IMG/VR virus record: IMGVR_UViG_3300043443_000209 | Location: 1 to 63,968 of that record | From: a virus | Taxonomy: Duplodnaviria > Caudoviricetes | Direction: 5' to 3' (one strand) | DNA: 63,968 nucleotides | In this document: piece after piece, positions 809-44,775 of the stretch | Position numbering within the stretch: position 1 is the first letter of the stretch | Layout of the letters: the number at the start of each line of letters is the position of its first letter | The notes under the pieces: model-generated | Databases searched by the model: none | The model's input: the letters and a program-made list of their open reading frames with translations, nothing else | Told to the model about the DNA's origin: nothing | Position numbers and translations under genes: made by a program

Positions 809-2269
809 TTACAGATAAGTCGAGACTGTACCCGGAGTAAATGCAACACCAAGACCCTTAACGATAATTAAGTGGTAGTATAGATTAGATCCGAATATGT
901 TATTAACGATACCATAACGGGTCATCAGACCAACGCGAGGAGTAAAGTTAACAGGATCGATAGCTCTTTGAACCATGATCGGGATATACGGACAGTAGAT
1001 AATACCTGTATCGTAGTACTCAGATCCCTTATAACCCATCAATGCATACTCAACAGGTTCCGACATAGTGCGGTTTCCAGTGTAGTAGTTATTTGTTGGA
1101 TAGTAAGTGGTATTTTGTACTTCGGTTCTAGTATCACGGTAAACGGTGAATCTTGCTCCTACGGTTCCTACCTTAGCGATACCAACACCAGCAGTCGAGA
1201 CTGTGCCATTGATTTCGTATACTTTGAAGTCAGGAAGCATTTCAAGGATGCTGCAAACGCGAGGAGTTGCAATAATGAAATTGGCAGCACCTCTACGGTT
1301 ACGAGCAGCCATACGGCCTGCTTCGATAATCAGTTTTTGGTAGAAAGTGAGATTTCTCTCAGCAGTCCAACGACCATCAGCACTTACAGGACTCCAGAAG
1401 GAGTATCCTGCTCCATAACCTGCGTTCATAGCAGCTTGGATCATTCTCATCACAACTTCACGGTCAATCTCAGCTTGAATTTCATAAGACATTGCGTTAG
1501 TAAGCTCGCCATCGATGTCGATGCCTTGCATATTCTTAACGTCTTGTTCAAGTTCAATAGACCAACGTGTTGCGAGTCTGCGTGTTCCAGCCTCAACGGA
1601 GGTTTTTTCGAATTTCATCTCAATTTGAGGAATACGGCCAGTGGCTTCATAGTTCTCAAGAAGTTGGGCTACACCCTGATCTTGATGTGAGAAGATCCAT
1701 TGATCGTTACCTGATAATGCACCAGAAGATACACCAGTGAAACGAGTATCAAGTAATTGATATCCGAGTTCATTGGTAACAGCATTGGAGTTACCAGTAT
1801 ATCCAAGACCGGGATTTGTACCACCAGTTGCAGCAGTCTTACCCACACCGTCCACATCACTCAAGTATGTTGATTGATATTGATAGCGGAGAGCAAATGC
1901 TAAACCGACAGGTCCACCCATTGGTTGGACACCGCAAATCTCTTGCGAGACTAATTCGGGGAAAGTACGTCTAATCATCGGAATAAGGATCTTTGGAAGT
2001 CTGGAGTCACCAGCAGCATAATTGTCGCCATTCACTTGAGCTTGCGGACCTGAGCCAGCAGCAGTTGTTGCGCCAAAGACACCACCAGAAGTTCCGGCTT
2101 CGTTAAGACACCATCTCTCTTGGTTCTCCATGAGTATAGCAGTTGTGCGATAAACGTGTTCATTTTGGATTTCAGCCACATCTTTCGAAGTGTAGTCCAG
2201 AATGCCTTTCCATTTTTCGACAATAGCATTTACGCTCTGTGGAGACATGTGTTGAGGGATATTATTCAT
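809..2269 (-). CDS. gp23: Major capsid protein (T4 gp23-like)
   Basis: Motifs EKW..ILD, TAILMENQE, IPMIRRTFPEL...GVQPMGGPVGLAFALR, ELEQDVKNMQGID, EIQAEIDREV, GYKG..YDTGIIYCPYIP, PRVGLMTRYG. Confidence 0.97.
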   Translation of the reverse strand: MNNIPQHMSPQSVNAIVEKWKGILDYTSKDVAEIQNEHVYRTTAILMENQERWCLNEAGTSGGVFGATTAAGSGPQAQVNGDNYAAGDSRLPKILIPMIRRTFPELVSQEICGVQPMGGPVGLAFALRYQYQSTYLSDVDGVGKTAATGGTNPGLGYTGNSNAVTNELGYQLLDTRFTGVSSGALSGNDQWIFSHQDQGVAQLLENYEATGRIPQIEMKFEKTSVEAGTRRLATRWSIELEQDVKNMQGIDIDGELTNAMSYEIQAEIDREVVMRMIQAAMNAGYGAGYSFWSPVSADGRWTAERNLTFYQKLIIEAGRMAARNRRGAANFIIATPRVCSILEMLPDFKVYEINGTVSTAGVGIAKVGTVGARFTVYRDTRTEVQNTTYYPTNNYYTGNRTMSEPVEYALMGYKGSEYYDTGIIYCPYIPIMVQRAIDPVNFTPRVGLMTRYGIVNNIFGSNLYYHLIIVKGLGVAFTPGTVSTYL

Positions 2270-2329: not shown

Positions 2330-3223
2330 TTACATTAATCCTTTACCTTTAGAAAGGACTGATAGATAATCGTTTTCAAGGGGGTTAACGGATTCAGATT
2401 TCTTCTCTTCGATTACTTTCTTATCCACTTTAGATGCAACAAAGTCGGGAACAACTTTTCTGCTCTTGATTGCTTCTTCTTTAAGATTTTCGCGTCTGCT
2501 CTTGTCTTGTTTATCAAACAGACGAGAAACATAGTCGAAGTTTTCTTCAATAAATTTTGGAGACTTATCAGAAAGGGCTTTTCTGACAAACTTTTTCTTG
2601 TCTTCAGAGAATTTTGCAGTCTTCTCTTCAAGAATGGAAGTAACCTTCATCTTTTCGTGTTGTTCAAGAAGGGCTTCATACTTTTTCTTAAGGTCTACAT
2701 TTTCCTTAGCAAGCGTGTCGATTTGTTTCTTACCATCGATCATGGCATCTTTGATAGAATCCTTCATCACAGCAGAATCAACGGCTAGAACACCACGAAG
2801 GTTTTCCAGAACCACATATGCATTCTTATTCTTAACAGCTTCTTCAATACCTAGATTATCTAGAGACTCTTTAAGGTATTCGTCTAAATAGCTGCTGATA
2901 GACTCCACAAGTTGAGCTTTGAACTTTGCGGCTTCTTTTTTATTAGCCTTTTCATAAATCTTGCTAAGAGTTTGTAACTTTTTAGCATTTGACTTATCGA
3001 TTGATTCGGCAATCAATTTCATCTTTGCTGTATGATCCTTATCGATTGACTCGATCAGGTTTGCCAACTTGGTAGCATAGATTTCGTCTTGTTCTAGAAG
3101 AGCAGCTTCAACACTTAAATCAACCTTATGATTAAATGCTTGTTCAATTGCTGCAAGAGTTTCTTCGCTCAATACCTTTTGAACGTCCTCCGAGAATAAT
3201 TGTTTTAATTTGTTTTTGTCCAT
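2330..3223 (-). CDS. gp22: Prohead core scaffolding protein (gp22-like)
   Basis: Coiled-coil E/K-rich protein directly upstream of gp23, with LVESISSYLDEYL resembling gp22. Start moved to MDKNKLKQ (3223). Confidence 0.85.
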   Translation of the reverse strand: MDKNKLKQLFSEDVQKVLSEETLAAIEQAFNHKVDLSVEAALLEQDEIYATKLANLIESIDKDHTAKMKLIAESIDKSNAKKLQTLSKIYEKANKKEAAKFKAQLVESISSYLDEYLKESLDNLGIEEAVKNKNAYVVLENLRGVLAVDSAVMKDSIKDAMIDGKKQIDTLAKENVDLKKKYEALLEQHEKMKVTSILEEKTAKFSEDKKKFVRKALSDKSPKFIEENFDYVSRLFDKQDKSRRENLKEEAIKSRKVVPDFVASKVDKKVIEEKKSESVNPLENDYLSVLSKGKGLM

Positions 3224-3227
3224 GATT

Positions 3228-3662
3228 TTAGAATAGTGGTTTGGCGAATTCTTGTTCAATGCGTTTTTGAACTTTTTTCGCAATTGCGTTATTAATATAT
3301 TTATTCGCAGCAGCATAATTTTTATCGAAAATATGCTTAACAAACTCGTTTATATCGGTATTTTCATCTAAATTCTCATTTCTATCATAAGAACCCTTAC
3401 CTTTTTTGGGTTTATGAGCTTTAGTTAATGGAGCATACTTTTTACGCTCTTTTACCTTTGGACCTTTAAAGGTGGCTTTACCATCCTTTTCAATCTTCTT
3501 AGAAATCTTTTCTTCGTCCTCATCTTTGATGAAGTCGTCAACCTGATCTTCGGTCATTTCTTTTGATGCTTTTTTGGCAGCACCAGATACATTCTTCTGG
3601 CCTTTTTTAGCACCTTTTACAGCACCGAAGAATTTTTTCTGCTTTTCTGATTTAGCTGGCAT
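3228..3662 (-). CDS. Putative prohead core protein (gp67/68-like C-terminus) with a basic N-terminus and an ArfA-like motif
   Basis: Lies between gp21 and gp22. N-terminal MPAKSEKQKKFFGAV, central HKPKKGKGSYDR, C-terminal helical DINEFVKHIFDKNYAAANKYINNAI. Confidence 0.55.
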   Translation of the reverse strand: MPAKSEKQKKFFGAVKGAKKGQKNVSGAAKKASKEMTEDQVDDFIKDEDEEKISKKIEKDGKATFKGPKVKERKKYAPLTKAHKPKKGKGSYDRNENLDENTDINEFVKHIFDKNYAAANKYINNAIAKKVQKRIEQEFAKPLF

Positions 3663-3670
3663 AGTAGTAT

Positions 3671-4339
3671 TTATCCTAATGAGTTAATAAATTTGATAAC
3701 TTGTTCACGAAGAAACGCATCTATGTCCTTTTTTGGCAGTTTTGAGATGGTTTTTTCGAAATCTTCATACAATTCCTCAAATCTTCCGCTTTCGTCTAGG
3801 ACGAAGCTCTTGGATTCTAGAATTCCATTAACAAATGCTTTTGGATAGCTTGGGTCTGCAACTGCATCAATTGCGACTAGGTAAAGGTTCTCAACTAGAT
3901 TATAATCGGCATTTTCCTTTAAAGAACCCAAGGCTCTTGTGGAAACACCCACCTTAACTCCATCATTAATAAGGGATCTTAAAATTTGACCACAGGGAGT
4001 AGATAGCACCTTTGACTTACCGTGGAAACCACCTTCTTCTTCATAAAGCTCTGTAACTAAGTGACATGCTCTTTCAAGATTAACATCAGCAGAACTTGGG
4101 TGATTCAATTCCCCCATTGCTCTTCCCGGTTTAACCATCTCTTCAATGTATCTATTTACATCTTTTCTGGTTTCGTCTAATCCATATAGTCTCTTGTTTT
4201 TGTTAACTATATCACAACCAATGAATGGTCCCTTGATATATAGAGTGGACTGTCCCTTTAGATTAGCTTGTTCTTCAACATATTCATAGTTGTCGAATGC
4301 ATCGGGATTCTCTGCAATTAATTTTAATTTTAGTGCCAT
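3671..4339 (-). CDS. gp21: Prohead protease (gp21-like)
   Basis: LYIKGPF, NKNKRLY, RAMGELNHP, TPCGQI, GVSTRALGSL, DAVADPS. Start moved to MALKLKL. Confidence 0.95.
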   Translation of the reverse strand: MALKLKLIAENPDAFDNYEYVEEQANLKGQSTLYIKGPFIGCDIVNKNKRLYGLDETRKDVNRYIEEMVKPGRAMGELNHPSSADVNLERACHLVTELYEEEGGFHGKSKVLSTPCGQILRSLINDGVKVGVSTRALGSLKENADYNLVENLYLVAIDAVADPSYPKAFVNGILESKSFVLDESGRFEELYEDFEKTISKLPKKDIDAFLREQVIKFINSLG

Positions 4340-4368
4340 GTATATATTTATTGTATTTTTTCTAAATT

Positions 4369-4830
4369 CTATTGATTTAGTTCCTTTTCTGTAATAATAA
4401 TGAACTCCATACCACGTTTTTTGGCAAATTCTCTGGCTGATGGCCATTTATCATTATTATTTGCCCATTGGAGTTGTTCATATAGAACAGTAGACCTCTT
4501 TTTTCTCTTAGACTGTTTGGGTTGAACTGTCTGACTATGCGGCTTAATTTCTATTAAGTACTTCTTAATTTGATTACCTTCTAAGATTTCCACATAATTA
4601 TCCACATAATATGTCCTTTTCTTTTTCTTAACAGAATCATAGTAAGGAATCTTTACGGACTCACTGGACCATTTAAGAATTGTGTCTGTACGGTCACACC
4701 ATAACATGAACTTTAACTCCAGACCTGATCTATACACAATTGGACCTTTACCTAAGTATTTCTCAGGATGAATAGGATTATAGAATCCCTGCTTAAACCT
4801 TTTATCTCTTATTAGTTTTAAGTCCCCCAT
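4369..4830 (-). CDS. gp4: Head completion nuclease (gp4-like)
   Basis: P.KYLG..PIVYRSGLELKFMLWCD, WSSE..KIPY, YYVD, IEIKP, N..KW..A, F.IITE. Confidence 0.92.
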   Translation of the reverse strand: MGDLKLIRDKRFKQGFYNPIHPEKYLGKGPIVYRSGLELKFMLWCDRTDTILKWSSESVKIPYYDSVKKKKRTYYVDNYVEILEGNQIKKYLIEIKPHSQTVQPKQSKRKKRSTVLYEQLQWANNNDKWPSAREFAKKRGMEFIIITEKELNQ

Positions 4831-9100: not shown

Positions 9101-9854
9101 TTGAATCCCATTTACTTGAAAGACTATACAGAGAATTATTAGTGGAATCCCATGCAGACATTCTAGCATAAGTATTATCCCAATTTGCGCTACTTGCTCT
9201 AACCTTTAGGGACACTTGGGTATCGTCTCCATTGTCTACTGCCCATGATGTACTAAGAGCATTAACAGTAGAATAAACTGTCTGCCAGTTGGCAGAAATA
9301 TTTGTTACAGTGTTATAATTTGATTCCCACTTATCACTTAAACTATACACTGAGTTGTTAGTAGAATCCCATGCGGACATTCTACTGTATGTGGTATCCC
9401 AATTAGCACTACTTGCTCTTAATTTTGTAGAAGCTCCTACATCATCATCTATGTTAAACCACTGACTAGAAACGTTAGTAACAGTGTTATATGTAGAGTC
9501 CCAGAAGGCACTAGATGCTCTCAACTTGGTAGAGGCTTCCACATCATCCTGTGAGTCTACTCCCCATGCAGCACTATTATTAAGAACTGTGGTGTAAGTG
9601 CTATCCCAAAATGCACTACTTGATCTTAACTTAGTTGATGCTTGAGTATCATCACCCCCTCCGACAATTCCCAAATAATTTGCCGCACTTAAATTTCCAT
9701 AAACAATTAGATTATTTAAAACATCGACAGAACTTACAGTAATAGACCTTGTAGCAGACAGATCAACAGTCAATGTTAATAATCCACTATCATTGATGTT
9801 CTGTTGTGCTGCCCCATCAGCTAGGTAATTACTTGTTACTTTCGTTTTAGACAT
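6186..9854 (-). CDS. Large fibre-like protein with tandem Trp-periodic repeats
   Basis: 1222 aa; many WxSxYNTVTNLSxN-type 14-aa units; phage-fibre-like C-terminus (ITLSLANGTFQTITL...KWPNNTSPTLS...DIFSFFADGRNWYG). Confidence 0.8.
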   Translation of the reverse strand: MSKTKVTSNYLADGAAQQNINDSGLLTLTVDLSATRSITVSSVDVLNNLIVYGNLSAANYLGIVGGGDDTQASTKLRSSSAFWDSTYTTVLNNSAAWGVDSQDDVEASTKLRASSAFWDSTYNTVTNVSSQWFNIDDDVGASTKLRASSANWDTTYSRMSAWDSTNNSVYSLSDKWESNYNTVTNISANWQTVYSTVNALSTSWAVDNGDDTQVSLKVRASSANWDNTYARMSAWDSTNNSLYSLSSKWDSTYNTVTNISSQWFNIDDDTQVSSKVRASSANWDNTYARMSAWDSTNNTVNSLSDKWESNYNTVTNVSANWNTVYSTVNALSTSWAVDNADDTQASSKVRSSSANWDATYNTVTNISSQWFNIDDDTQVSAKVRASSANWDNTYARMSAWNATNLTVYNLSDKWESNYNTTTNLSGTWVSVYNTVTNVSANWNTVYSTVNALSTSWAVDNTDDTQASLKVRASSANWDNTYARMSAYDTTNNTVNSFSGKWESNYNTVTNVSANWNTTYSTVNALSTTWNNTDDTQASAKVRYMSALWDSAYLSAINATPNAISQPNSLIKSDSSSGITLGYLTIGNNGTFIDYPLWHKDGGSPYQVTVHASGLLSDVNVYWPVRDGSIAVLGDISDNLIGVRSLSSNWQSTYNTVFNVSANWNTVYSTVNALSTSWAVDNGDDTAVSTKVRASSANWDTAYARMSAWDATNNTVNSFSSNWNTAYSQVLSATTDGVTYANTLLKSTTGSGLLSVTGIYTAGDTVVGQILTIGARDSSGFTGNIKTNNLLTGKRGYQLPDKDGTFALLDDLAYLGSLSSNWESAYNTVNTLSSNWNSAYNTTNTRSGAWDSTNLTVYNLSNGWENTYARMSAWDSTNNTVNSFSSNWQSAYNTVNTRSGAWDSTNLTVYNLSNKWESNYNTVTNLSGNWQSAYSTVNTRSGAWDSTNLTVFNLSDKWESNYNTVTNLSTNWNSAYNTVNTRSGAWDSTNLTVFNLSSTWQDDTYASAKIRASSAVWDSTYNTLTNLSAKWESNYNTVTNLSGTWVSTYNTVTNLSTTWQDDVQASSKVRASSANWDTTYFLVNGATSDATVSPLSVLKSDSGGGLKVGSLTSTELVVEEYRETPVTLGFYGSSITLSLANGTFQTITLTSNCAFNMPAKTPGTSFVLLLSTGTTNLSGNFVNVKWPNNTSPTLSISASRIDIFSFFADGRNWYGTVAQNYTP
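6630..9650 (-). repeat. Coding tandem repeat array (30- and 42-bp modules)
   Basis: Recurrent blocks such as gaatcccatgc.gacattctagcata and tcccaattagcactacttgc, all in frame within the ORF. Confidence 0.85.
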
Positions 9855-12800
9855 TATGTTAAGTCAGTATTATGAGGAATTAATTTCGATGCTTTCTTAA
9901 TTCCATTATTAATAATTGTTTGATTATTTTGAATTGCAGTAATGGCTGCACTTTCAGATGGAGTAAGACCGCTTGTGCCAGTTTCCACTACGAACACCTT
10001 ATCTCTCCACACAACGTCGATACCACCACCACCTGATGAGTGAACAGGATATGCACCATCAGAACGATAAAGACGAATATTATCTAGTTGTTTGATATTT
10101 GTTGCAGTTGTATTGTCAAGATATAAACTAGCAACATCAACATGATTGATGATATTTGCCGCATCAATAGCCTCGACAGCACCACAGAAATTTCTAATAC
10201 CATCAGCAGTTGTTAATATATATGCACACCAAGAGTAAAGGTCTGCACCATAGAAATCTGAACCAATAATAACATCTACCTCATTATTAACAATGTCTGC
10301 ACTAAATGATGAAATTGTGCTTCCGTCAGTTCCGTATGTTGCATAGACTGTATCATCTTCCTGACTTGCTAGAACAGACCATCCCGCAGCACCTGCAACA
10401 GTGTTTGTTTCGTAACACAATTTGGCAGATAATCCAGATTGATAAGCCAGTCTCACATTAACAACATCTCCTGTAGTGTAATCTGATCCTTCGGTATATG
10501 TTGTAGAATAAGAAGTACCCGGAACAATATCATTATAAACTTCTGTTGCAGTTGTTTCGTTATAAATACGAAGTCTAGAACCAGCGGTAATGTTAGAGAT
10601 TAGAACATCATTAAGAACTGGTGGAGTTCCATATGTACCATCATCAGATTGGAATCTAGTGAAATCTGGGTGAGGAGTTCCTGAGAGATCGATCACGCGA
10701 ACACCACATATTGTGTCTCCTCCAACTTTATGTAAATTACCACGAACTGTTTCATAAGTAGTTCCAACTCTCAACACCATTTCTGGCCAGAAGAAGGGAT
10801 CTTTACCTTGGAATGATGCATCAAGAGATAAATTATAATTCAACCAACGAAGAATTTCTTCCCCACTATTAGAACCTGTATCAGTAATAGTTATGCTATA
10901 ATTTTTAGCACCATCACCAGCATCCCAAGAAATAGGCGCATCGGAATCATCAGTTATAGACACTCCGCTTATTGCGGGATCGCCCAATGTTAGGTTCGAA
11001 ATTTCGACCTCTGGTAGTGCCACCACATAGAATGTTTCTTCAAGAGGACCATAAACATCAACAATACTAGTTTCCGCTTGACGATAACCATTGGTTTGAA
11101 CTTTTAGGTCAAAATAATTTGTATGGTCTATATTACCATGTGATGCGTCCCCGTAGAATTGAACCACTTGGTCAATGTTACCAGTGCTAAGAGCATCTAT
11201 AACTGTCATATTATCGTGATAATACTCCACCTGAGATCCGCCCATAACACCTTGGGATAATACTGCGCAGTATTTTGCAGTAACCACATCACTTGAATTT
11301 AGATACCTAAATCCGTCTCTCTTCAAATATTGAATAGAACCTGATGAAAATTCATGGTCGTGAGTAAGTGTGAATGAGTTTGCACCGAATGGTTCAATTG
11401 GGAATAAAGCGTTTGCGTGTTCGGACTGTGATATCCAAGATTCGATCCAGAATGAATACCAGTTTTGAACTGTTGTTGGAACTGTAACAGTGAATGTTGT
11501 TCCCGACAAACTAGCAGTAGTACCATGAGTCAATCCTGAGGATGTTGCATATGCTCTATCCACGGTTTGTTGAATAGCGACATCAACAGATGTTGTATCA
11601 ATATCTACTCCAGTAACTCTAATCGGCAAATAACCAGTTTTCATTACGGTATAGTCATATGAACCTGCTGCAAGACCGTTTGCGGTTTCTGATGTTCCGC
11701 TAGAGTTTGTTCTAAAGACTTCGGTTTGAGTTCCAGTATTAAACACTACAACTTGAGATCCTGTCACTAAACCAGAGAAATTAAATCCAATCGGGACAAC
11801 ATAATATGTACCATCATCTGCTTGGAATTGAACAAAGTCTGGAACTGCTGTAGTTCCATCGCTTCGAACAACGCGAACACCCTTAGAGGCTGCTCCCGCA
11901 GATCCAAAAAGTCTTCCTCTGGCAGTTTCAAATTGAGAACCGTTGGGAACTATCATTTTAGGCCATGCCATTCCTCTAAATCCGAAGAAAGTATCATTTT
12001 TAGCAATATTCCAATGAATATATTCTGCGATTTGCTCTGCTGTTAAATTATCATTCGATGTTTGAATAGTAATACTAAAATCTTTACCGTTCCATGAAAC
12101 GGGATTTGCCCCATGATTTATTACGGAAATTCCCAAAACACCAAGATCGCCCCCAGAAATAGATGTCCAATCGGTTTGCACTACTGGAATTGTTTGGCTG
12201 GTGTCGGTTATAGTTAATGTGTTTTCGTCTGGTTGATAACCCGCCTTTCGGTGACGAACAACTACACTATAATTACTGCTCCAAGGATTGGTTAAAGTAA
12301 TACTAGTTCCTGTTGATGTTTGATAATCAACTAGATAATCATCACTATCTCTAAAGGAGGCCATTGAAGATCCCGAAACAAGACCAGTATATGTTAATGT
12401 TGGCTCCTCAAGAGGATATTGAACCTGTTGAGAGGATGCATCGGTAAGTGTTGATAACGATATATAAGATATTGCGTTAACTGCTGATGCGGCAATTGTG
12501 GTGGATCTAACTTTTAATTTAAATCCTAAGGTATGATCGATACTAGATTCTGCCGATAGATTTAAAGCATTCAGAGTCTTCCAAGATCCGAACCCACTTC
12601 CATCATTTTTATCTATTTGATACTCATGTGTTAAATTAACACCTGTTCCCACACCACGGACAACTACAGGTAAAGTTGAGAACCCAGTATGACCAATACA
12701 ATAGTATGGAATTGTCCATGTTATTTGATCCCCATAACTAGGCATACTTACTTGACCAGTTGAGGTAAATTTGGGGGTTCCTGATGTTGCAGAGCATTGC

Positions 12801-14752
12801 GTTGAAGTAGAAGATGTTGGTTCATTACAGTGAATTTGTATTCTACCTGTAGTAGATCCTGTAAATGCATCAGTCCAGTGAGTTCCATACACGGCAGTTT
12901 GACCAGCAAGAGAACCTGTCCATCTTCCCCCCTTATGAGTTGTATTTAAAGTTGTAAATGCTTGGGAATCTGCAAAATCTCCCCACACATTTGACACTAC
13001 AAAGTTTGAGTCGGAGTTGGTCTGTGTAAAAGCACCAGTTCTTAAGTTCTGTGCATATAAACGTTGCAGTTTATGACCACTATTATTACCCCCAGAATTT
13101 ACAATTACACCAGTGGGGCTAATTGTTCCAAGATTTATTGGACTTGTAGGTGTTCCCATGTCACGAACAACACAGTTATAACTATCTGTTAAGGATACTA
13201 ATCCGTTATATGGTTGAAGGTTTGCAAGCCCACCATAAGGAAAATAATTATACATTCTGATATTATCACAACCTGCGATAACTCTGTATAAGTATACAGG
13301 GTTGCTTGTTGCAGTATTTCCAGAAATACTATCAGCGTAAGTATTACCAGATAATATAACATTTTGACATTCCGTTAATAGAGTTTCACCGTTTATAAAA
13401 TTGTTACCAATAATTCTAGAATTGTTCGTTCTAACTAAACTCATTGGACCTACTGCTGCGGCTCCTCTAATACCTGCTGCGGTGGAACCAAATAATTCAA
13501 TATTAGTTGAAGAAATGGTAACATTTTCACATGAAGTAATTAATGCACCATATCCGTTGTTGTTTGCAGAAGAATATCTTACTACCCTAGAGTTTACGAT
13601 ATTAGTTCCCGCAAGATTTGAGGTTAGAGTTATTGGATGGGTGGGATCTGTGGTTGAGTTACATCCAATAGCAAAACTATCAATATATATTGGTGTTGCA
13701 CATTCTGAAATGTTAATAGCATGTAGCGTTGATGAGTTAGTAAGTTTTACAGAATATGGTTGTGCAAATGAGTAGTATATATTTGCAGCAGCTTTATCTA
13801 TATCAATAACCCCCGATGATGTTGTTGTGAAATCCCATCTAGTAGCTAGAGTAGCATTGATCGTGTTAGCTTGGAATGAAGATGGAGCAAATGTGTTCGA
13901 AAAATGAACATTTGGACATCTCACTCTTAGTCCAGAAGCAGGTAAATAACCGCAACCGTTAGCTCCTGATGCTGCTATAGTAATCAACCCCGTGGTATTG
14001 CTCATTCCAAAGAACTTACCTCTTATATCATTTGGAACAAATTTACCAGCAACATTCCATCTTGAACCAGCGTTTATCCACCATTCATAAGTATTACTAC
14101 CAACACTAGTCTCAATTTGAATAGCAGGACATGCATCTGCCACATAATATTGAAAAGTTTGGCTACTTAATCCTAAAGTAGTTCCAAGATCAAACCAATC
14201 CCCTGTGACTTTAAATTCTCCAAGACGAGGAACAGTAATCGTGGTGGCTTCCATACCTGTGACATTAAGCCATCCCCTTCGTCCTCCAGTTGGGGAATTT
14301 ACAGTTAAGGATACTCCACCGCTTAGTGTAATAACCTCATTATCGACAAATGGACTTGCTACATTCCTAAGTTTAACAAATCCTGTTGCGGGAACTGCTT
14401 CGCTTGCGGTTAGGGGTCTTGTCGCAAGGGCGGAATAAATACCCAAAAGCTCACCCAATCCCCCAGAAGATCCACTTAGGGTATAAGTTCCCAATGGGGG
14501 AAGAGGGGGGGTAGTTCCTGAACCAGCGTCAAACGGAATCCACCATACAGATGTGCCATCGACAAGGACTTTTCCGCCAGTTGCGGAATCAATTGTAAGG
14601 TTTCCTATTACAGCAGCTTGTTGGCTATACCTATTATCGGAGTTGATTGTAAGGATGGCTCCATTATTAATAGTCACGGTTTCTCCGTGATTCAAAGCTA
14701 AGTTGGCTGTTGAGTCTAAATTGCTAGTTGTTGATACTGTAATGTTAGCCAT
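9854..14752 (-). CDS. Very large virion structural protein (beta-helix-like region plus duplicated C-terminal domains)
   Basis: 1632 aa, S/T/G/N-rich; beta-helix-like stretch (ITSCENVTISS, LTECQNVILSGN); two copies of a GVRV..G..PDF..FQ.DDGTY domain. Confidence 0.75.
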   Translation of the reverse strand: MANITVSTTSNLDSTANLALNHGETVTINNGAILTINSDNRYSQQAAVIGNLTIDSATGGKVLVDGTSVWWIPFDAGSGTTPPLPPLGTYTLSGSSGGLGELLGIYSALATRPLTASEAVPATGFVKLRNVASPFVDNEVITLSGGVSLTVNSPTGGRRGWLNVTGMEATTITVPRLGEFKVTGDWFDLGTTLGLSSQTFQYYVADACPAIQIETSVGSNTYEWWINAGSRWNVAGKFVPNDIRGKFFGMSNTTGLITIAASGANGCGYLPASGLRVRCPNVHFSNTFAPSSFQANTINATLATRWDFTTTSSGVIDIDKAAANIYYSFAQPYSVKLTNSSTLHAINISECATPIYIDSFAIGCNSTTDPTHPITLTSNLAGTNIVNSRVVRYSSANNNGYGALITSCENVTISSTNIELFGSTAAGIRGAAAVGPMSLVRTNNSRIIGNNFINGETLLTECQNVILSGNTYADSISGNTATSNPVYLYRVIAGCDNIRMYNYFPYGGLANLQPYNGLVSLTDSYNCVVRDMGTPTSPINLGTISPTGVIVNSGGNNSGHKLQRLYAQNLRTGAFTQTNSDSNFVVSNVWGDFADSQAFTTLNTTHKGGRWTGSLAGQTAVYGTHWTDAFTGSTTGRIQIHCNEPTSSTSTQCSATSGTPKFTSTGQVSMPSYGDQITWTIPYYCIGHTGFSTLPVVVRGVGTGVNLTHEYQIDKNDGSGFGSWKTLNALNLSAESSIDHTLGFKLKVRSTTIAASAVNAISYISLSTLTDASSQQVQYPLEEPTLTYTGLVSGSSMASFRDSDDYLVDYQTSTGTSITLTNPWSSNYSVVVRHRKAGYQPDENTLTITDTSQTIPVVQTDWTSISGGDLGVLGISVINHGANPVSWNGKDFSITIQTSNDNLTAEQIAEYIHWNIAKNDTFFGFRGMAWPKMIVPNGSQFETARGRLFGSAGAASKGVRVVRSDGTTAVPDFVQFQADDGTYYVVPIGFNFSGLVTGSQVVVFNTGTQTEVFRTNSSGTSETANGLAAGSYDYTVMKTGYLPIRVTGVDIDTTSVDVAIQQTVDRAYATSSGLTHGTTASLSGTTFTVTVPTTVQNWYSFWIESWISQSEHANALFPIEPFGANSFTLTHDHEFSSGSIQYLKRDGFRYLNSSDVVTAKYCAVLSQGVMGGSQVEYYHDNMTVIDALSTGNIDQVVQFYGDASHGNIDHTNYFDLKVQTNGYRQAETSIVDVYGPLEETFYVVALPEVEISNLTLGDPAISGVSITDDSDAPISWDAGDGAKNYSITITDTGSNSGEEILRWLNYNLSLDASFQGKDPFFWPEMVLRVGTTYETVRGNLHKVGGDTICGVRVIDLSGTPHPDFTRFQSDDGTYGTPPVLNDVLISNITAGSRLRIYNETTATEVYNDIVPGTSYSTTYTEGSDYTTGDVVNVRLAYQSGLSAKLCYETNTVAGAAGWSVLASQEDDTVYATYGTDGSTISSFSADIVNNEVDVIIGSDFYGADLYSWCAYILTTADGIRNFCGAVEAIDAANIINHVDVASLYLDNTTATNIKQLDNIRLYRSDGAYPVHSSGGGGIDVVWRDKVFVVETGTSGLTPSESAAITAIQNNQTIINNGIKKASKLIPHNTDLT

Positions 14753-40477: not shown

Positions 40478-40978
40478 TTAATAAAGAACAGCTATTTTGT
40501 TCTCAATAGACTCAAAATAATCCTCTACAAGCCTTACAAAACCCTCATCCCTCAACTTTTTCTTAATTAGTTTCAGGGATTTTGGATTAGTGTCGGACAT
40601 GACATAAACCTCAAACTGGTCAATAACCGGAATATCATTATCTGCAAGCTTTTCAAGAAATTCCGTAAGAGGTAGGGGATATAACCATACTCTAAACCCA
40701 AATAGGCTTCTAGTTTTCTTAATAATTTTCTTCTGTAATTCAGTACAATCCCATTGATTGTAATAAAATACAACCCTATACTTAAAAGAGAATGATTTAA
40801 TCAATTCACAGAGATTGGTAGCAAAGAAATGGTAGTAGATCTTTTGTTGGTCCTTACCATCTAAATTGATGGACAATCCCAAAGACGATGCGTATTCATA
40901 GTATTGAATATTGGTCTTTCTGAACAGTGGGGATAAGTCCTCAAAGACAAGATTGGGGTATTTCTTAATGGAAATCAT
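40478..40978 (-). CDS. Hypothetical protein
   Basis: 166-aa ORF coupled to the upstream gene. Confidence 0.65.
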   Translation of the reverse strand: MISIKKYPNLVFEDLSPLFRKTNIQYYEYASSLGLSINLDGKDQQKIYYHFFATNLCELIKSFSFKYRVVFYYNQWDCTELQKKIIKKTRSLFGFRVWLYPLPLTEFLEKLADNDIPVIDQFEVYVMSDTNPKSLKLIKKKLRDEGFVRLVEDYFESIENKIAVLY

Positions 40979-41442
40979 GATAAATCGATCATATCAATGG
41001 ATCTTGGTTTGTCAACATAGTCCTTGGGAACCTTACCAATTCTCACATTAAGAATTCCATTATAGAATCTGTCATCCATTAGAGCATTTGTTAAGATTTG
41101 CCATATCAATTCGGAATATGTCATATGAAACTTGGAATTGCATAATTCTATAACTGTTCTAGTGAAATGCTCTATTCCATACTTTTCAATGTCACTTAGT
41201 AGTTCTTTTGATGATCCCCAATATTCCATTACATTATTGTCTGAAAATGTAATTCTATTCCTTGTCTTACCTTTTAATGGTTTCTTCTTAACTCTTTTTT
41301 GACATTGCTTCTTTCCTATGTAATATCTTTTACCATTATTTTTTATTACATCTGGATGATTACACTTGATAATGTAAACAAACCCAAAAACATCACTATA
41401 GTCCTTTGGTAGATTGATCCATTCCTTATTTGCTTTGTCCAT
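40975..41442 (-). CDS. GIY-YIG-family nuclease-like protein
   Basis: FGFVYII...YYIGKK...YWGSS..L..DI...G...F.R.VI. Confidence 0.75.
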   Translation of the reverse strand: MDKANKEWINLPKDYSDVFGFVYIIKCNHPDVIKNNGKRYYIGKKQCQKRVKKKPLKGKTRNRITFSDNNVMEYWGSSKELLSDIEKYGIEHFTRTVIELCNSKFHMTYSELIWQILTNALMDDRFYNGILNVRIGKVPKDYVDKPRSIDMIDLS

Positions 41443-41679: not shown

Positions 41680-42489
41680 TCACCAATCATTACAGGCAGC
41701 TTCTTGAGCAGACCCCTTTTTAGCATTTGAGCAGTTATGTCTAGCCCTAAATGACTTCTTGCGCTTAGTGTCGCCACTTTTACCTGTGACCTTAACCCCC
41801 GCTTGACCCCAATGAATTCTTTTGACACTACCATCAGGCTGTTTGGCACACTTTGTCCATTTTTTACCCTTACGATCTGAGGAAGCCTTTTTGGTAGGTT
41901 TGGTGCATTGACTTTCAGCATCCTCTTCGGAATGGACCCCCTTCAATTTTGAATAGTAATGGGGATCTTCTGCCAAATGTTGTTTAGCAATCATCACAGC
42001 AACCTTCTTATCATTTGTGTGTTCCATTTCAACCATAGCACCCCTTTTGAGTTCTTTTGGGTCATAGTTGATATTTTTATTAATAGGTTTGAAAATTTGA
42101 TTAATAGTTTCTGCTTCACAGTCTTCTTCAGGAACACAATTTGGAACCTGTTTACCATTTTTCTCCTTCATTCCTCTCTGATTGTAACCTTTCCAGCATG
42201 GGTCTTCTTCATCCTCCCAATACATCTTAGACCTTTTCTTGGCCTTTTTGGGTTTAGATGTTGGTTTAATGCCGCCCTGTCTAGTTTGGACCCTTCCAAG
42301 GACTTTTGGTATACGAGTATCCCCCGAAGCATAGTTATCCCCCGTTTCGATAGCTCCCCCTGAAGTTGGAACACCCCCCATCACTCCCCCAGCATCCATC
42401 TCAGTCAACAGAGACTCGTCTTTTTTACCCAAAACGGACTCATTGTAGATTTTTGCAATATTTTTGAAATCTTCTCTTGACAATGGCAT
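41680..42489 (-). CDS. Modular probable internal head protein (MCP N-arm-like segment plus several small phage domains)
   Basis: GDNYASGDTRIPKVL; PCWKGY...VPNCVP; GAMVEMEHT..IAKQHLAEDPHYYSKL (DUF5661-like); KRKKSFRARHNC. Confidence 0.75.
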   Translation of the reverse strand: MPLSREDFKNIAKIYNESVLGKKDESLLTEMDAGGVMGGVPTSGGAIETGDNYASGDTRIPKVLGRVQTRQGGIKPTSKPKKAKKRSKMYWEDEEDPCWKGYNQRGMKEKNGKQVPNCVPEEDCEAETINQIFKPINKNINYDPKELKRGAMVEMEHTNDKKVAVMIAKQHLAEDPHYYSKLKGVHSEEDAESQCTKPTKKASSDRKGKKWTKCAKQPDGSVKRIHWGQAGVKVTGKSGDTKRKKSFRARHNCSNAKKGSAQEAACNDW

Positions 42490-42492
42490 ATC

Positions 42493-42502
42493 ATTATTTA
42501 TA
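42493..42502 (-). promoter_or_regulatory. Late promoter with the full T4 consensus TATAAATA
   Basis: cagTATAAATAatgatATG upstream of 41680-42489; a second full copy lies at about 14768-14775 upstream of the 1632-aa gene. Confidence 0.75.
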
Positions 42503-42518
42503 CTGATGAGTAGGCATT

Positions 42519-42914
42519 ATGGATAAAAGATTCGAAGAATACTCAAAGTTGTATAAAGAGTTCGTCAACATTGACGATTTCAATATGGAGGAACGGGTTA
42601 AACGCATACCTGCGGAGAAACATTTTTGGGTTGCAAGACTTATTGAAGCCAAACAGGAAAGATTGGCACTAAGTCGTAAGAGATACATACTTAAGAAGAA
42701 GAATATCGACAAAGCCAAGGCTGAAGGGATTGTTACCCTATCAAGCAAAACTCTTAATGAGTTGGAGAAGACGAAGGACATAGAGGATATCGATGAGAAG
42801 ATTGAAGATTTGAATCTTTTGATCGAATATCTTGAATTGACGGTAAAGAACATTAGCTTTATCGCAAAGGACATTGAGAATATCATTGACCTACGAAGAC
42901 TTCAGCTTGAATGA
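42519..42914 (+). CDS. uvsY: Recombination mediator (UvsY-like)
   Basis: Helical protein directly before uvsW; ID..N, P..KH.W, IEYLE..VK.I....DI.NIID..R. Confidence 0.75.
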   Translation: MDKRFEEYSKLYKEFVNIDDFNMEERVKRIPAEKHFWVARLIEAKQERLALSRKRYILKKKNIDKAKAEGIVTLSSKTLNELEKTKDIEDIDEKIEDLNLLIEYLELTVKNISFIAKDIENIIDLRRLQLE

Positions 42915-44326
42915 TTAAATTAGATTACATCGATTCATCCAGAAGAGGGAGATTGGTCTGTGAAGAGTCAATTTTTGAAATGGTGCGTAATCATTTCTCC
43001 GAAGCCAACCCAACTGCTTCCTTCGCAAATAAGAAGTTGAAGATGCAGGGATCTAGAAAAAGGATACCTGAGAGAGATTATGCTGTTCATAAGAACGGAA
43101 GCTTTGACTTCGGACTATATAATGAGATAAGAAAATATCTTATTGCTAACAATTTTAATGATGTAGTGATGTCGGAGAGCTTTAAGGCTCAACTTAAGTG
43201 TGGATTTCCTTTTTATGTGTTTCATAACGAACTCCTATTGACCCTGCGAGACTATCAAGAGGATTGTGTGTCGAGTTGTTTGAAGGTTGGTAGAGGAACC
43301 ATTCTTGTTGGAACAGGAGGAGGCAAGTCTCTCATACAAGCATCTCTTTTGGAGAACTGGAAGAGACACAGAGGAAGTCTTAATGCACTTCTAATTGTTC
43401 CCGGTATCGGTCTTGTATCACAACTACTAAAAGACTTCGAAGATTACGGTGTGAAGTTCACTTATTCGGGATGGACAGGGGACATGCCGAAACAGAATAC
43501 GGAAGTTGTTATAGTTAATACGGAACTTCTTTGTTCGCAGTTCGCAGAGTTTCCCGAACTTCTCGATGTTGATCTGGTTCTTGGGGATGAATGTCACAAG
43601 ATTAAAAAGTCCAATCAGATTACCAAACTCATCAATAAAATTCGAACACCGAACAAGTTTGGATTTACAGGAACTCTACCATTGGAGAACATTGAGAAGT
43701 GGAAAGTTCTCGGAACATTTGGTCCTGTCGTTTACAAAAAGAAAGCAGATGAGTTAAGAGAAGAAGATTATCTCACAGATGTAAGAGTGCTATCTCTTAA
43801 AATCAATCATCCTCGTCAAGTTAAGGGATATAAAAAAGAAATTGAGGATATGGTGTCCAATAATGATCGCCATAATGTAATTAAGAAGATGACCAATGGC
43901 ATGAAGAAGAATGTTCTCATTCTTGTTAATAGAATTGAACATGGTTTAAATCTTTTGGAGACACTCGATTTTGATAATAGAAAAGTCTTCTTTATTCATG
44001 GTGAAGTTCCTGTGGAAGAACGAGCCAGAATCATAGACATAATGGAAAATAATGATGATGTTATTACCATTGCCATGTCTTCAATTTTTTCCACAGGAAT
44101 AAATATTAAAAATCTCCACTACATTATATTCGCCGCAGGTAGCAAATCGTTTACTAGAGTAGTTCAGTCCATTGGTCGTGGTCTTCGCTTACATGCTAGT
44201 AAATCCTTACTTTATGTTTTCGATATATACGACAACTATGAGTTCTCGATTAAACACCATGATGAGCGTTTACGATACTATGAGATGGAGGGTATTAAAA
44301 ATACCGAAAAGGAAATAACATTATGA
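42911..44326 (+). CDS. uvsW: SF2 DNA helicase UvsW
   Basis: LRDYQ, GTGGGKSL, DECH, GFTGTL, FSTGINIKNLH, QSIGRGLR. Confidence 0.93.
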   Translation: MIKLDYIDSSRRGRLVCEESIFEMVRNHFSEANPTASFANKKLKMQGSRKRIPERDYAVHKNGSFDFGLYNEIRKYLIANNFNDVVMSESFKAQLKCGFPFYVFHNELLLTLRDYQEDCVSSCLKVGRGTILVGTGGGKSLIQASLLENWKRHRGSLNALLIVPGIGLVSQLLKDFEDYGVKFTYSGWTGDMPKQNTEVVIVNTELLCSQFAEFPELLDVDLVLGDECHKIKKSNQITKLINKIRTPNKFGFTGTLPLENIEKWKVLGTFGPVVYKKKADELREEDYLTDVRVLSLKINHPRQVKGYKKEIEDMVSNNDRHNVIKKMTNGMKKNVLILVNRIEHGLNLLETLDFDNRKVFFIHGEVPVEERARIIDIMENNDDVITIAMSSIFSTGINIKNLHYIIFAAGSKSFTRVVQSIGRGLRLHASKSLLYVFDIYDNYEFSIKHHDERLRYYEMEGIKNTEKEITL

Positions 44327-44775
44327 TAACAAACAAAGCAATTAAAGAGAAATATTATGTATCATCAAAAAAGTTCAGAGAACTACTTGAACAATACTAC
44401 AAGGATGATAAGATGACAAATGAACTCGCAGAGAATATCGTTAAGATCGCAGAGGGTCTTAGCTATAATTGGCGTTTCATCAACTACACTAAGTCTTGGA
44501 AAGAAGAAATGGTGGGGGATGCAATCGTCAAGATGTATTCTGCATTGGAAGATAAAAAGTTTGACATTAAATGTGAATACAATCCGTTTTCATACTTCAA
44601 TCAAATCGCATGGAATGCATTCTCAAACAGAATTAAGAAAGAAAAGAGACAGCATGATGGTTTGGAAGAGTATAAGCAGAGAGTGTATGAAGAAGAAATG
44701 TCAGGTTCTACCAATGGTGGAATCTATATCAAGCCAATGTCGAATAATGATGACGAGGATGGATATTACGAATAA
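44323..44775 (+). CDS. gp55: Late-transcription sigma factor (gp55-like)
   Basis: YYV..K.F, KIAEGLS...FINYT..KEEMVGDA, NPFSYFNQIAWNAF..RIKKEK. Confidence 0.92.
   Translation: MITNKAIKEKYYVSSKKFRELLEQYYKDDKMTNELAENIVKIAEGLSYNWRFINYTKSWKEEMVGDAIVKMYSALEDKKFDIKCEYNPFSYFNQIAWNAFSNRIKKEKRQHDGLEEYKQRVYEEEMSGSTNGGIYIKPMSNNDDEDGYYE

Follow-up and report, generated by a model that had tools for sequence, protein, structure and literature searches.

The sequence analysed here, a 64-kb IMG/VR virus record that is estimated to be ~31% complete and is hereafter called the window, is of distant T4-like myophage origin. Its minus strand encodes a 486-aa major capsid protein gp23 (809-2269; Pfam Gp23, E=5e-83), which shares only ~33% identity with cyanophage gp23, and a gp21-type prohead protease (3671-4447; phrog_207, E=8e-54), which is the presumed processing enzyme. 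The ORF at 2330-3220 on the same strand is a candidate for the scaffold protein (gp22) by virtue of its position between the protease and gp23 only, and a family search with it returned no match. A lysine-rich 144-aa ORF (3228-3662, minus strand) occupies the space between the protease and this scaffold candidate; it has ATAAATA 8 nt upstream, begins with a weakly DUF3008-like stretch (E=0.006) and is, by position, a candidate prohead core protein. T4 has its gp67/gp68-type genes at the equivalent position. Another minus-strand ORF of 1632 aa (9854-14752), with TATATAAATA upstream, is probably a large late (structural) gene. The gene on which we focus, a 269-aa ORF (41680-42489, minus strand), encodes a small protein carrying a copy of the gp23 N-fist, to which three extra domains are joined. 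Its divergent neighbour is a probable UvsY gene (42519-42914, plus strand; Pfam UvsY E=0.0011, below the cut-off), beyond which follow UvsW, a gp55-type late sigma factor (44323-44775, plus strand; E=5e-28) and gp47. Immediately downstream of the 269-aa ORF lies a 155-aa ORF (40975-41442, minus strand) that matches the PHROG family 'NAD synthetase' (E=2e-22) as well as homing-endonuclease families (E ~1e-8).

All parts of the 269-aa ORF are given here on the minus strand. The product starts with a leader (residues 1-30; 42400-42489), with helices predicted at residues 5-19 and 26-33, which ends in L-T-E (residues 28-30; 42400-42408), by its sequence a candidate gp21 cleavage site. Next comes the copy of the mature gp23 N-terminus, equivalent to the N-fist (residues 31-65; 42295-42399) and predicted to be disordered, and then a basic tail (residues 66-88; 42226-42294) that contains 10 K+R and no D/E and has a pI of 12. 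The remainder is made up of a CWKGY beta-hairpin plus helix domain (residues ~92-132; 42094-42216; pLDDT >90; phrog_9737 and others), a DUF5661 domain (PF18905; residues 146-184; 41938-42054; 30.4 bits against a cut-off of 27) and a basic, Cys/His-containing C-terminal domain of the DUF5754 type (residues 186-269; 41683-41934). The last of these scores 20 bits with Pfam DUF5754 (PF19058), below the gathering cut-off of 27.4, and its Atlas structure reaches a TM of 0.86 with a DUF5754 cluster. In an AF2 model of the ORF, the leader is helical, the copy and the tail are disordered and the small domains are confidently predicted; a Foldseek comparison of this model with the PDB retrieved no structure at E<=0.001. 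The mature product has a predicted pI of 9.5. The ORF matched no internal-protein family in PHROG or Pfam, and it shows no homology to the T4 proteins IPI, IPII, IPIII or Alt.

Relationship between the 269-aa ORF and gp23

BLASTP aligns residues 9-64 of the ORF with residues 29-95 of the window gp23 at 36% identity (E=4e-7). The stretch that the two proteins share consists of an L-x-E site (LTE at residues 28-30 of the ORF, LNE at residues 55-57 of gp23) and ~35 residues after it, where both have a GGV stretch followed by GDNYAxGDxRxPKxL. The original of the copy in gene 23 (1985-2107, minus strand) comprises the L-N-E site (2099-2107) and the mature N-terminal 38 residues (1985-2098), directly after which the conserved N-arm stretch begins. 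When 14 relatives of the small protein were compared with 29 relatives of gp23, the profile-profile alignment placed ORF residues 33-65 against gp23 residues 61-95 with 96.4% probability (E=1.3e-9). The likeness in these three elements, which the initial annotation had pointed out from the letters of the DNA, is thus borne out by both comparisons, and the intervals that it had assigned to the two copies also hold: 42296-42410 corresponds within one base to ORF residues 27-65, and 1985-2108 to gp23 residues ~54-95. A six-frame motif scan finds the strict motif in the ORF and in gp23 and nowhere else in the window. The homology is limited to gp23 residues 61-95, and the ORF does not match Pfam Gp23 (PF07068). 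In a HMMER alignment to T4 gp23, the shared stretch falls at the position of the T4 N-fist, and it stops at the start of the conserved N-arm stretch that matches the T4 M-V-R-R-A-I-P-N-L region. The small protein is therefore homologous to gp23 over ~35 residues past the cleavage site, to which some of its relatives add R-R-x-F-P, whereas it lacks the HK97-fold body and carries a poly-lysine tract and cargo instead.

At the DNA level, the ORF and gp23 use the same codon at only 5/12 identical residues, the corresponding figures for three relatives range from 7/13 to 7/16, and the third-base differences are scattered along the ORF-gp23 alignment. Since the synonymous sites have diverged at about half of the identical residues, the likeness is one of protein and does not stem from a recent copying event. 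The codon differences rule out recent recombination or gene conversion between gene 23 and the ORF, and this pattern of substitution indicates that the capsid copy in the ORF is old and maintained by selection on the peptide. It is true that the copied region is Gly-rich and predicted to be disordered, as would suit a chance or low-complexity match. However, given the pairwise and profile-profile E values and the conservation of the copy in hundreds of clusters (below), such a match has, like a scar of recent recombination between the two genes, a negligible probability of explaining the observations.

The small-protein family and its fusions

Among the best 120 homologues of the whole ORF, only two (P0002 and P0003) have the N-terminus in common with it, and the others match its widespread C-terminal domain. 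Searched with a profile of the three N-termini, all 30 related records yielded gp23, and 16 of them yielded a second, small ORF of ~75-95 aa that occurs once per genome and is present in 9 of the 10 related records that are at least 60% complete. With a profile of 122 small proteins, gp23 was recovered from 15/20 additional records (E from 2e-11 to 2e-7), and five further records contained exactly one module gene besides gp23, sometimes in a fused form. On the capsid side, x-D-x-Y-A-x-G-D-x-R-L-P-K-I-L and a W-C-x-x-E site are kept in 80/80 of the gp23 relatives fetched. The small ORFs consist of a ~20-aa leader ending in [LIVF]-x-E, the junction (D)-M-x-A-G-G, an N-fist-like block and a lysine-rich tail, and they end about where the basic tail of the window ORF (residues 66-88) stands. 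In the closest relative, a complete genome whose gp23 is 91% identical, the small gene stands alone and a CWxGY/DUF5754 protein is encoded elsewhere. The stand-alone state of the gene in relatives thus identifies the window ORF as the small protein fused to extra domains, joined at an internal Met that directly follows the basic tail. As in the window, the small gene and a uvsY-like gene diverge in both neighbourhoods checked (L185, L187).

Three further observations concern these and other relatives. Four genomes that are at least 96% complete (G001, G007, G015 and G009) each contain a single full-length gp23 homologue, with no gp24-type paralogue at E<=0.01 in any of the four, and their vertices are presumably built from gp23 or from an unrelated protein. 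One of them (G009, C1:129103-129192, minus strand) has a 61-aa open frame that matches the N-arm proper (gp23 residues 88-117) at 63% identity and is thus a second, different ORF made of a capsid fragment. Lastly, the relatives L018-L062 include stand-alone proteins of the DUF5754 type, ~95-115 aa long, whose leaders span 12-15 residues, close with L/I/V-x-E and resemble T4 capsid-targeting sequences, which suggests that the DUF5754-type domain may itself be loaded into heads.

A profile of the small-protein alignment, searched against 1.84 billion representatives, recovered 307 clusters at E<=1e-3, including 51 with E<=1e-10; most of the clusters are stand-alone proteins of 55-110 aa. In the best 150 of these 307, the core motif is found in 142 and lies within the first 75 residues in 128, a [LIVMFY]-x-E site stands 12-45 aa upstream of the core motif in 135, and a basic tail is present in 142. 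Several members continue, after the basic tract, with I-P-x-I-R-R-x-F-P, a stretch that resembles the gp23 N-arm, and some leaders of the wider family match the targeting sequence MKTYQEFIAE of T4 IPII and IPIII. A DNA-pattern scan of IMG/VR located at least 120 loci; among the matches listed, 40 resemble gp23 and 80 are small ORFs or fusions. The module falls within no Pfam or PHROG family: the N-terminus of the window ORF and those of two relatives gave no PHROG match at E<=1, phrog_1823 and phrog_2086 included, and a tblastn search of cultured phages gave no hit to the version of the module carried by the window's clade. A motif that failed to persist in orthologues had been named in the initial annotation as evidence against its own reading; both in the 30 related records and in the further family, the motif is conserved.

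The domains to which the module is fused differ from member to member, in keeping with the earlier suggestion of swappable cargo. They comprise DUF5661, CWxGY and DUF5754-like domains, a GNAT domain recognised by Pfam at E=5e-15, a domain with a weak ParB likeness (PHROG E=3e-4) and several others. One type of cargo (L295, L280) matches Pfam Exotox-A_cataly below the cut-off (E=0.007). For another fusion type of ~200 aa (L258 group), the predicted fold is unusable (mean pLDDT 38), a PDB profile search and a PHROG scan found nothing meaningful, and an ADP-ribosyltransferase-like domain that had been suspected in it by eye is unsupported. The module is C-terminal, or has no obvious L/I-x-E before it, in some members (GNAT and some DUF5661 fusions among them), and where it is C-terminal, cleavage would split the cargo from the module.

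The commonest form of the family is a cargo-free peptide of 55-100 aa, present in one copy per genome, and its homology to gp23 is centred on the cleavage junction and the P' side. These features would fit a decoy or timer for the protease, a pseudo-substrate that competes for gp21 and so tunes gp23 cutting and shell expansion, with the cargo being secondary; T4 itself has, according to its annotation, a head-borne protease inhibitor, Inh. We nevertheless consider such a role rather improbable, because T4 gp21 is described as needing little beyond L/I-x-E (PMC9026906), because the block that is conserved best, D-x-Y-A-x-G-D-x-R-x-P-K, is 20-30 residues away from the scissile bond, and because the poly-lysine tail and the enzyme fusions would be left unexplained. 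Nor does the small protein show any similarity to T4 Inh by eye. Inh, gp67 and gp68 of T4 were also inspected as possible counterparts and rejected, as no N-fist-like motif was visible in them.

T4 gene 61.1 and covariation with gp23

When residues ~59-105 of T4 gp23 are searched against all six frames of the T4 genome, one other place is found, gene 61.1 (E=1.4e-5), whose 54-aa product is annotated as hypothetical (NP_049649, phrog_1823) and which has been listed as a conserved ORF without function (PMC1524935). Residues 2-38 of gp61.1 align with residues 57-93 of T4 gp23 without gaps and with 46% identity (E=1e-9), over a range that spans the L-T-E cleavage site. The protein starts with MKTFKEFIKE, where IPII and IPIII have MKTYQEFIAE, and it closes with a K-rich tail. 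Like the window family, gp61.1 therefore has a targeting-type leader, an E-D-M-x-A-G junction, a copy of the N-fist of its own gp23 and a K-rich tail; unlike the window ORF, it is encoded beside primase, between the primase and helicase genes, and not beside uvsY, and it has no cargo. Aligned with the window small-protein family by hhalign, gp61.1 reaches 85.8% (E=5e-6) over the leader and junction; its match to the window gp23 (E=0.027) falls at a non-equivalent place, and that of the window N-terminus to T4 gp23 is weak (E=0.010). As each protein matches its own gp23 strongly and the cross comparisons are weak, two deep lineages each appear to copy their own, unlike N-fist, and the central copies in gp61.1 and in the window differ completely because each follows its own gp23. 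These comparisons suggest that T4 gene 61.1 is probably an unrecognised example of the N-fist-copy design. The remark in the initial annotation that no described case was known to it is accordingly right in one respect and needs amending in another: the literature searched contains no description of a function for gene 61.1 or of any N-fist copy, yet T4 itself probably encodes an example.

A total of 1389 phage records contain relatives of gp61.1; Ac42, RB43 and Miro have the module at the end of a longer protein. In the one cyanophage tested, no second N-fist copy was found, and its gp23 lacks the motif. The match of gp61.1 to the PHROG family 'internal virion protein' reaches only E=0.31. 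In some GenBank records, small gp61.1-type ORFs (H100, H107 and H108) are annotated as 'major capsid protein', an artefact of their N-fist likeness.

We asked how closely the copy follows the gp23 of its own genome, by comparing a 16-residue block of each gp23 with that of each small protein and permuting the pairs. For 14 distinct pairs, the mean identity was 9.07 in cognate and 8.70 in non-cognate combinations (permutation p=0.05), and when 22 records provided 19 distinct pairs, the values were 9.37/16 and 8.77/16 (p=0.0046); the rows of this test are related phages, which makes it only moderately strong, and the covariation within the clade is modest. Individual genomes illustrate the trend: gp23 and the small protein share an 8-residue stretch in an otherwise variable part in one (G034), and an S-P-P stretch together with P-K-V-L in another (G033). 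The covariation that the initial annotation had proposed as a check is thus detected within the clade; the stronger test is T4, where the small protein likewise copies the T4 gp23.

The internal proteins of T4 are described as entering the head by means of a 10-residue targeting sequence, being cleaved at L/I-x-E and co-purifying with gp22 (PMC9026906). Within the targeting sequence, which is carried by IPI, IPII, IPIII and Alt (Mullaney and Black 1996, reviewed in PMC9026906 and PMC9958956), positions 4 and 7 are reported to target and positions 8 and 10 to direct cleavage (PMC9026906). In the alignment of gp61.1 with gp23 (T4 NC_000866, 18966-19130 and 104945-106510), positions 4, 7, 8 and 10, the functional ones in IPIII, coincide with gp23 F59, F62, L63 and E65, and the classic T4 targeting sequence may, on this alignment, imitate the end of the gp23 propeptide. 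At 30 residues, the leader of the window ORF is longer than the T4 targeting sequence, unlike it in sequence and outside its pattern of an aromatic residue at positions 4 and 7, I/L at 8 and E at 10, which gp61.1 and some members of the wider family do show. No convincing further leader of the targeting type turned up in a regex scan of the window.

The octamer TATAAATA, which we take to be the T4 late-promoter consensus, is located at 42495-42502 (minus strand), 5 nt upstream of the ATG of the ORF. In the window, it occurs at chance frequency (8 found vs 7.3 expected). Across the family, it lies at most 45 nt upstream of 25/72 distinct genes, against 77/1491 background ORFs (Fisher p=2e-13); T4 gene 61.1 has no TATAAATA in the 120 nt upstream. 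The location of 61.1 between primase and helicase genes, the recombination and replication genes adjoining the window ORF, and the strongly basic character of the tail and the DUF5754 domain would all be expected of a small basic DNA- or RNA-binding factor that is not a head protein, its gp23 likeness letting, for example, one chaperone or regulator recognise both proteins. With a leader that resembles the T4 targeting sequence, a conserved L-x-E and an enriched late-promoter motif, the family makes this quite unlikely.

A proposed prohead-loaded internal protein

On balance, we lean towards the reading that the 269-aa ORF encodes an internal protein which is loaded into the prohead and trimmed by gp21, and whose N-fist copy engages the partner of the gp23 N-terminus. 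The leader and the capsid-like peptide would bring the protein into the assembling prohead via the contacts of the gp23 N-terminus, most likely with the scaffold core; gp21 would then cut off the leader at L-T-E, and the basic mature protein would stay with the DNA, and may exit with it, carrying the fused domains. Under this proposal, the copy changes in step with gp23 because it must keep fitting the same partner. The sequence hallmarks of a gp21-processed head protein, as the initial annotation had envisaged it, are present: a leader, a basic tail and the L-x-E site, the latter in 135 of the 150 best relatives. The presence of gp21, gp23 and gp55 homologues in the window and the enrichment of TATAAATA upstream of family genes count in favour of this reading, and the varied fused cargo resembles, by analogy, the varied proteins that the T4 targeting sequence loads. 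Against an internal-head reading stand the position of T4 61.1 among replication genes with no TATAAATA close by, the chance frequency of TATAAATA in the window, the atypical leader of the window ORF, the members whose module is C-terminal or has no obvious L/I-x-E before it, the cyanophage that has no second N-fist copy and the modest size of the covariation. Moreover, since the T4 targeting sequence alone suffices for loading, targeting alone does not explain the N-fist copy.

Among known systems, T4 IPI, IPII, IPIII and Alt come closest, with a leader ending in L/I-x-E, a phage encoding gp21 and gp23, a basic mature protein and varied cargo. Unlike them, the N-fist-copy family combines a copy of the capsid N-terminus with a poly-lysine tract, and the mature parts of the two groups show no homology. 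The internal head proteins DarA and Hdf of phage P1, which cryo-EM places at fixed inner-wall sites (PMC12810830), are similar in being tied to head morphogenesis and in touching both capsid and DNA; they differ in their unrelated sequence, and capsid-protein mimicry is not among the features for which that account describes them (PMC12810830).

The structural background of T4 bears on where such a peptide could bind. The cleaved N-terminus of T4 gp23 (residues 66-105) is described as a disordered segment in the interior of the unexpanded head, in probable contact with the gp22 core (PMC9546572; PMC9958956). Expansion moves it outside, with the result that the N-fist (residues 66-91; PMC7136217) and the N-arm come to lie on the outer surface (PMC9546572; PMC9958956; PMC7136217). 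Because the mature T4 N-fist is found outside, docking on the inner capsid wall, as the initial annotation had imagined it, is not the natural inference, and by analogy with T4 it would be more natural for the copy to share the partner that gp23 has at the prohead stage. A free N-fist could also act on the capsid lattice, by filling partnerless sites or competing with the gp23 arm, and so affect the size, expansion or stability of the head, or it could dock on the wall. In T4, the N-fist is reported to contact four subunits and to be disordered in the five subunits facing the portal (PMC7136217), and the head-length mutations A66D, A94V and G97S map to the N-terminal N-fist/N-arm region of gp23 (PMC9546572). 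Several family members bear the N-arm-like I-P-x-I-R-R-x-F-P, no gp24 paralogue was detected in 4/4 near-complete relatives, and the P1 proteins DarA and Hdf demonstrate that fixed inner-wall sites are possible for internal proteins. Yet the sites of the N-fist in the mature capsid are external, whereas the leader, the basic tail and the cargo indicate an internal protein, and an action on the lattice seems unlikely to us.

Returning to the prohead-loaded internal protein, it is tempting to speculate about the T4 superfamily as a whole. There, a free-standing maturation site with its N-fist copy could be a dedicated head-assembly peptide that occupies the prohead contacts of the gp23 N-terminus, co-evolves with these contacts and has repeatedly been recruited as an adaptor by which enzymes and DNA-binding domains are loaded, the targeting sequence itself being a copy of the gp23 propeptide end; we offer this generalisation tentatively, as an idea that is somewhat less likely to hold than to fail. 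The means by which T4-type heads select proteins for packaging is described as unresolved (PMC9958956), and a conserved peptide that copies the gp23 cleavage site and N-terminus points to a concrete packaging rule, namely to imitate the prohead contacts of gp23. If true, this rule would explain how such varied cargo enters heads, might link the classic targeting sequence to the gp23 propeptide and could supply a natural adaptor with which to load proteins into capsids of the T4 type. It also offers a testable role for T4 gene 61.1, which has gone unstudied even though T4 is the best-known phage.
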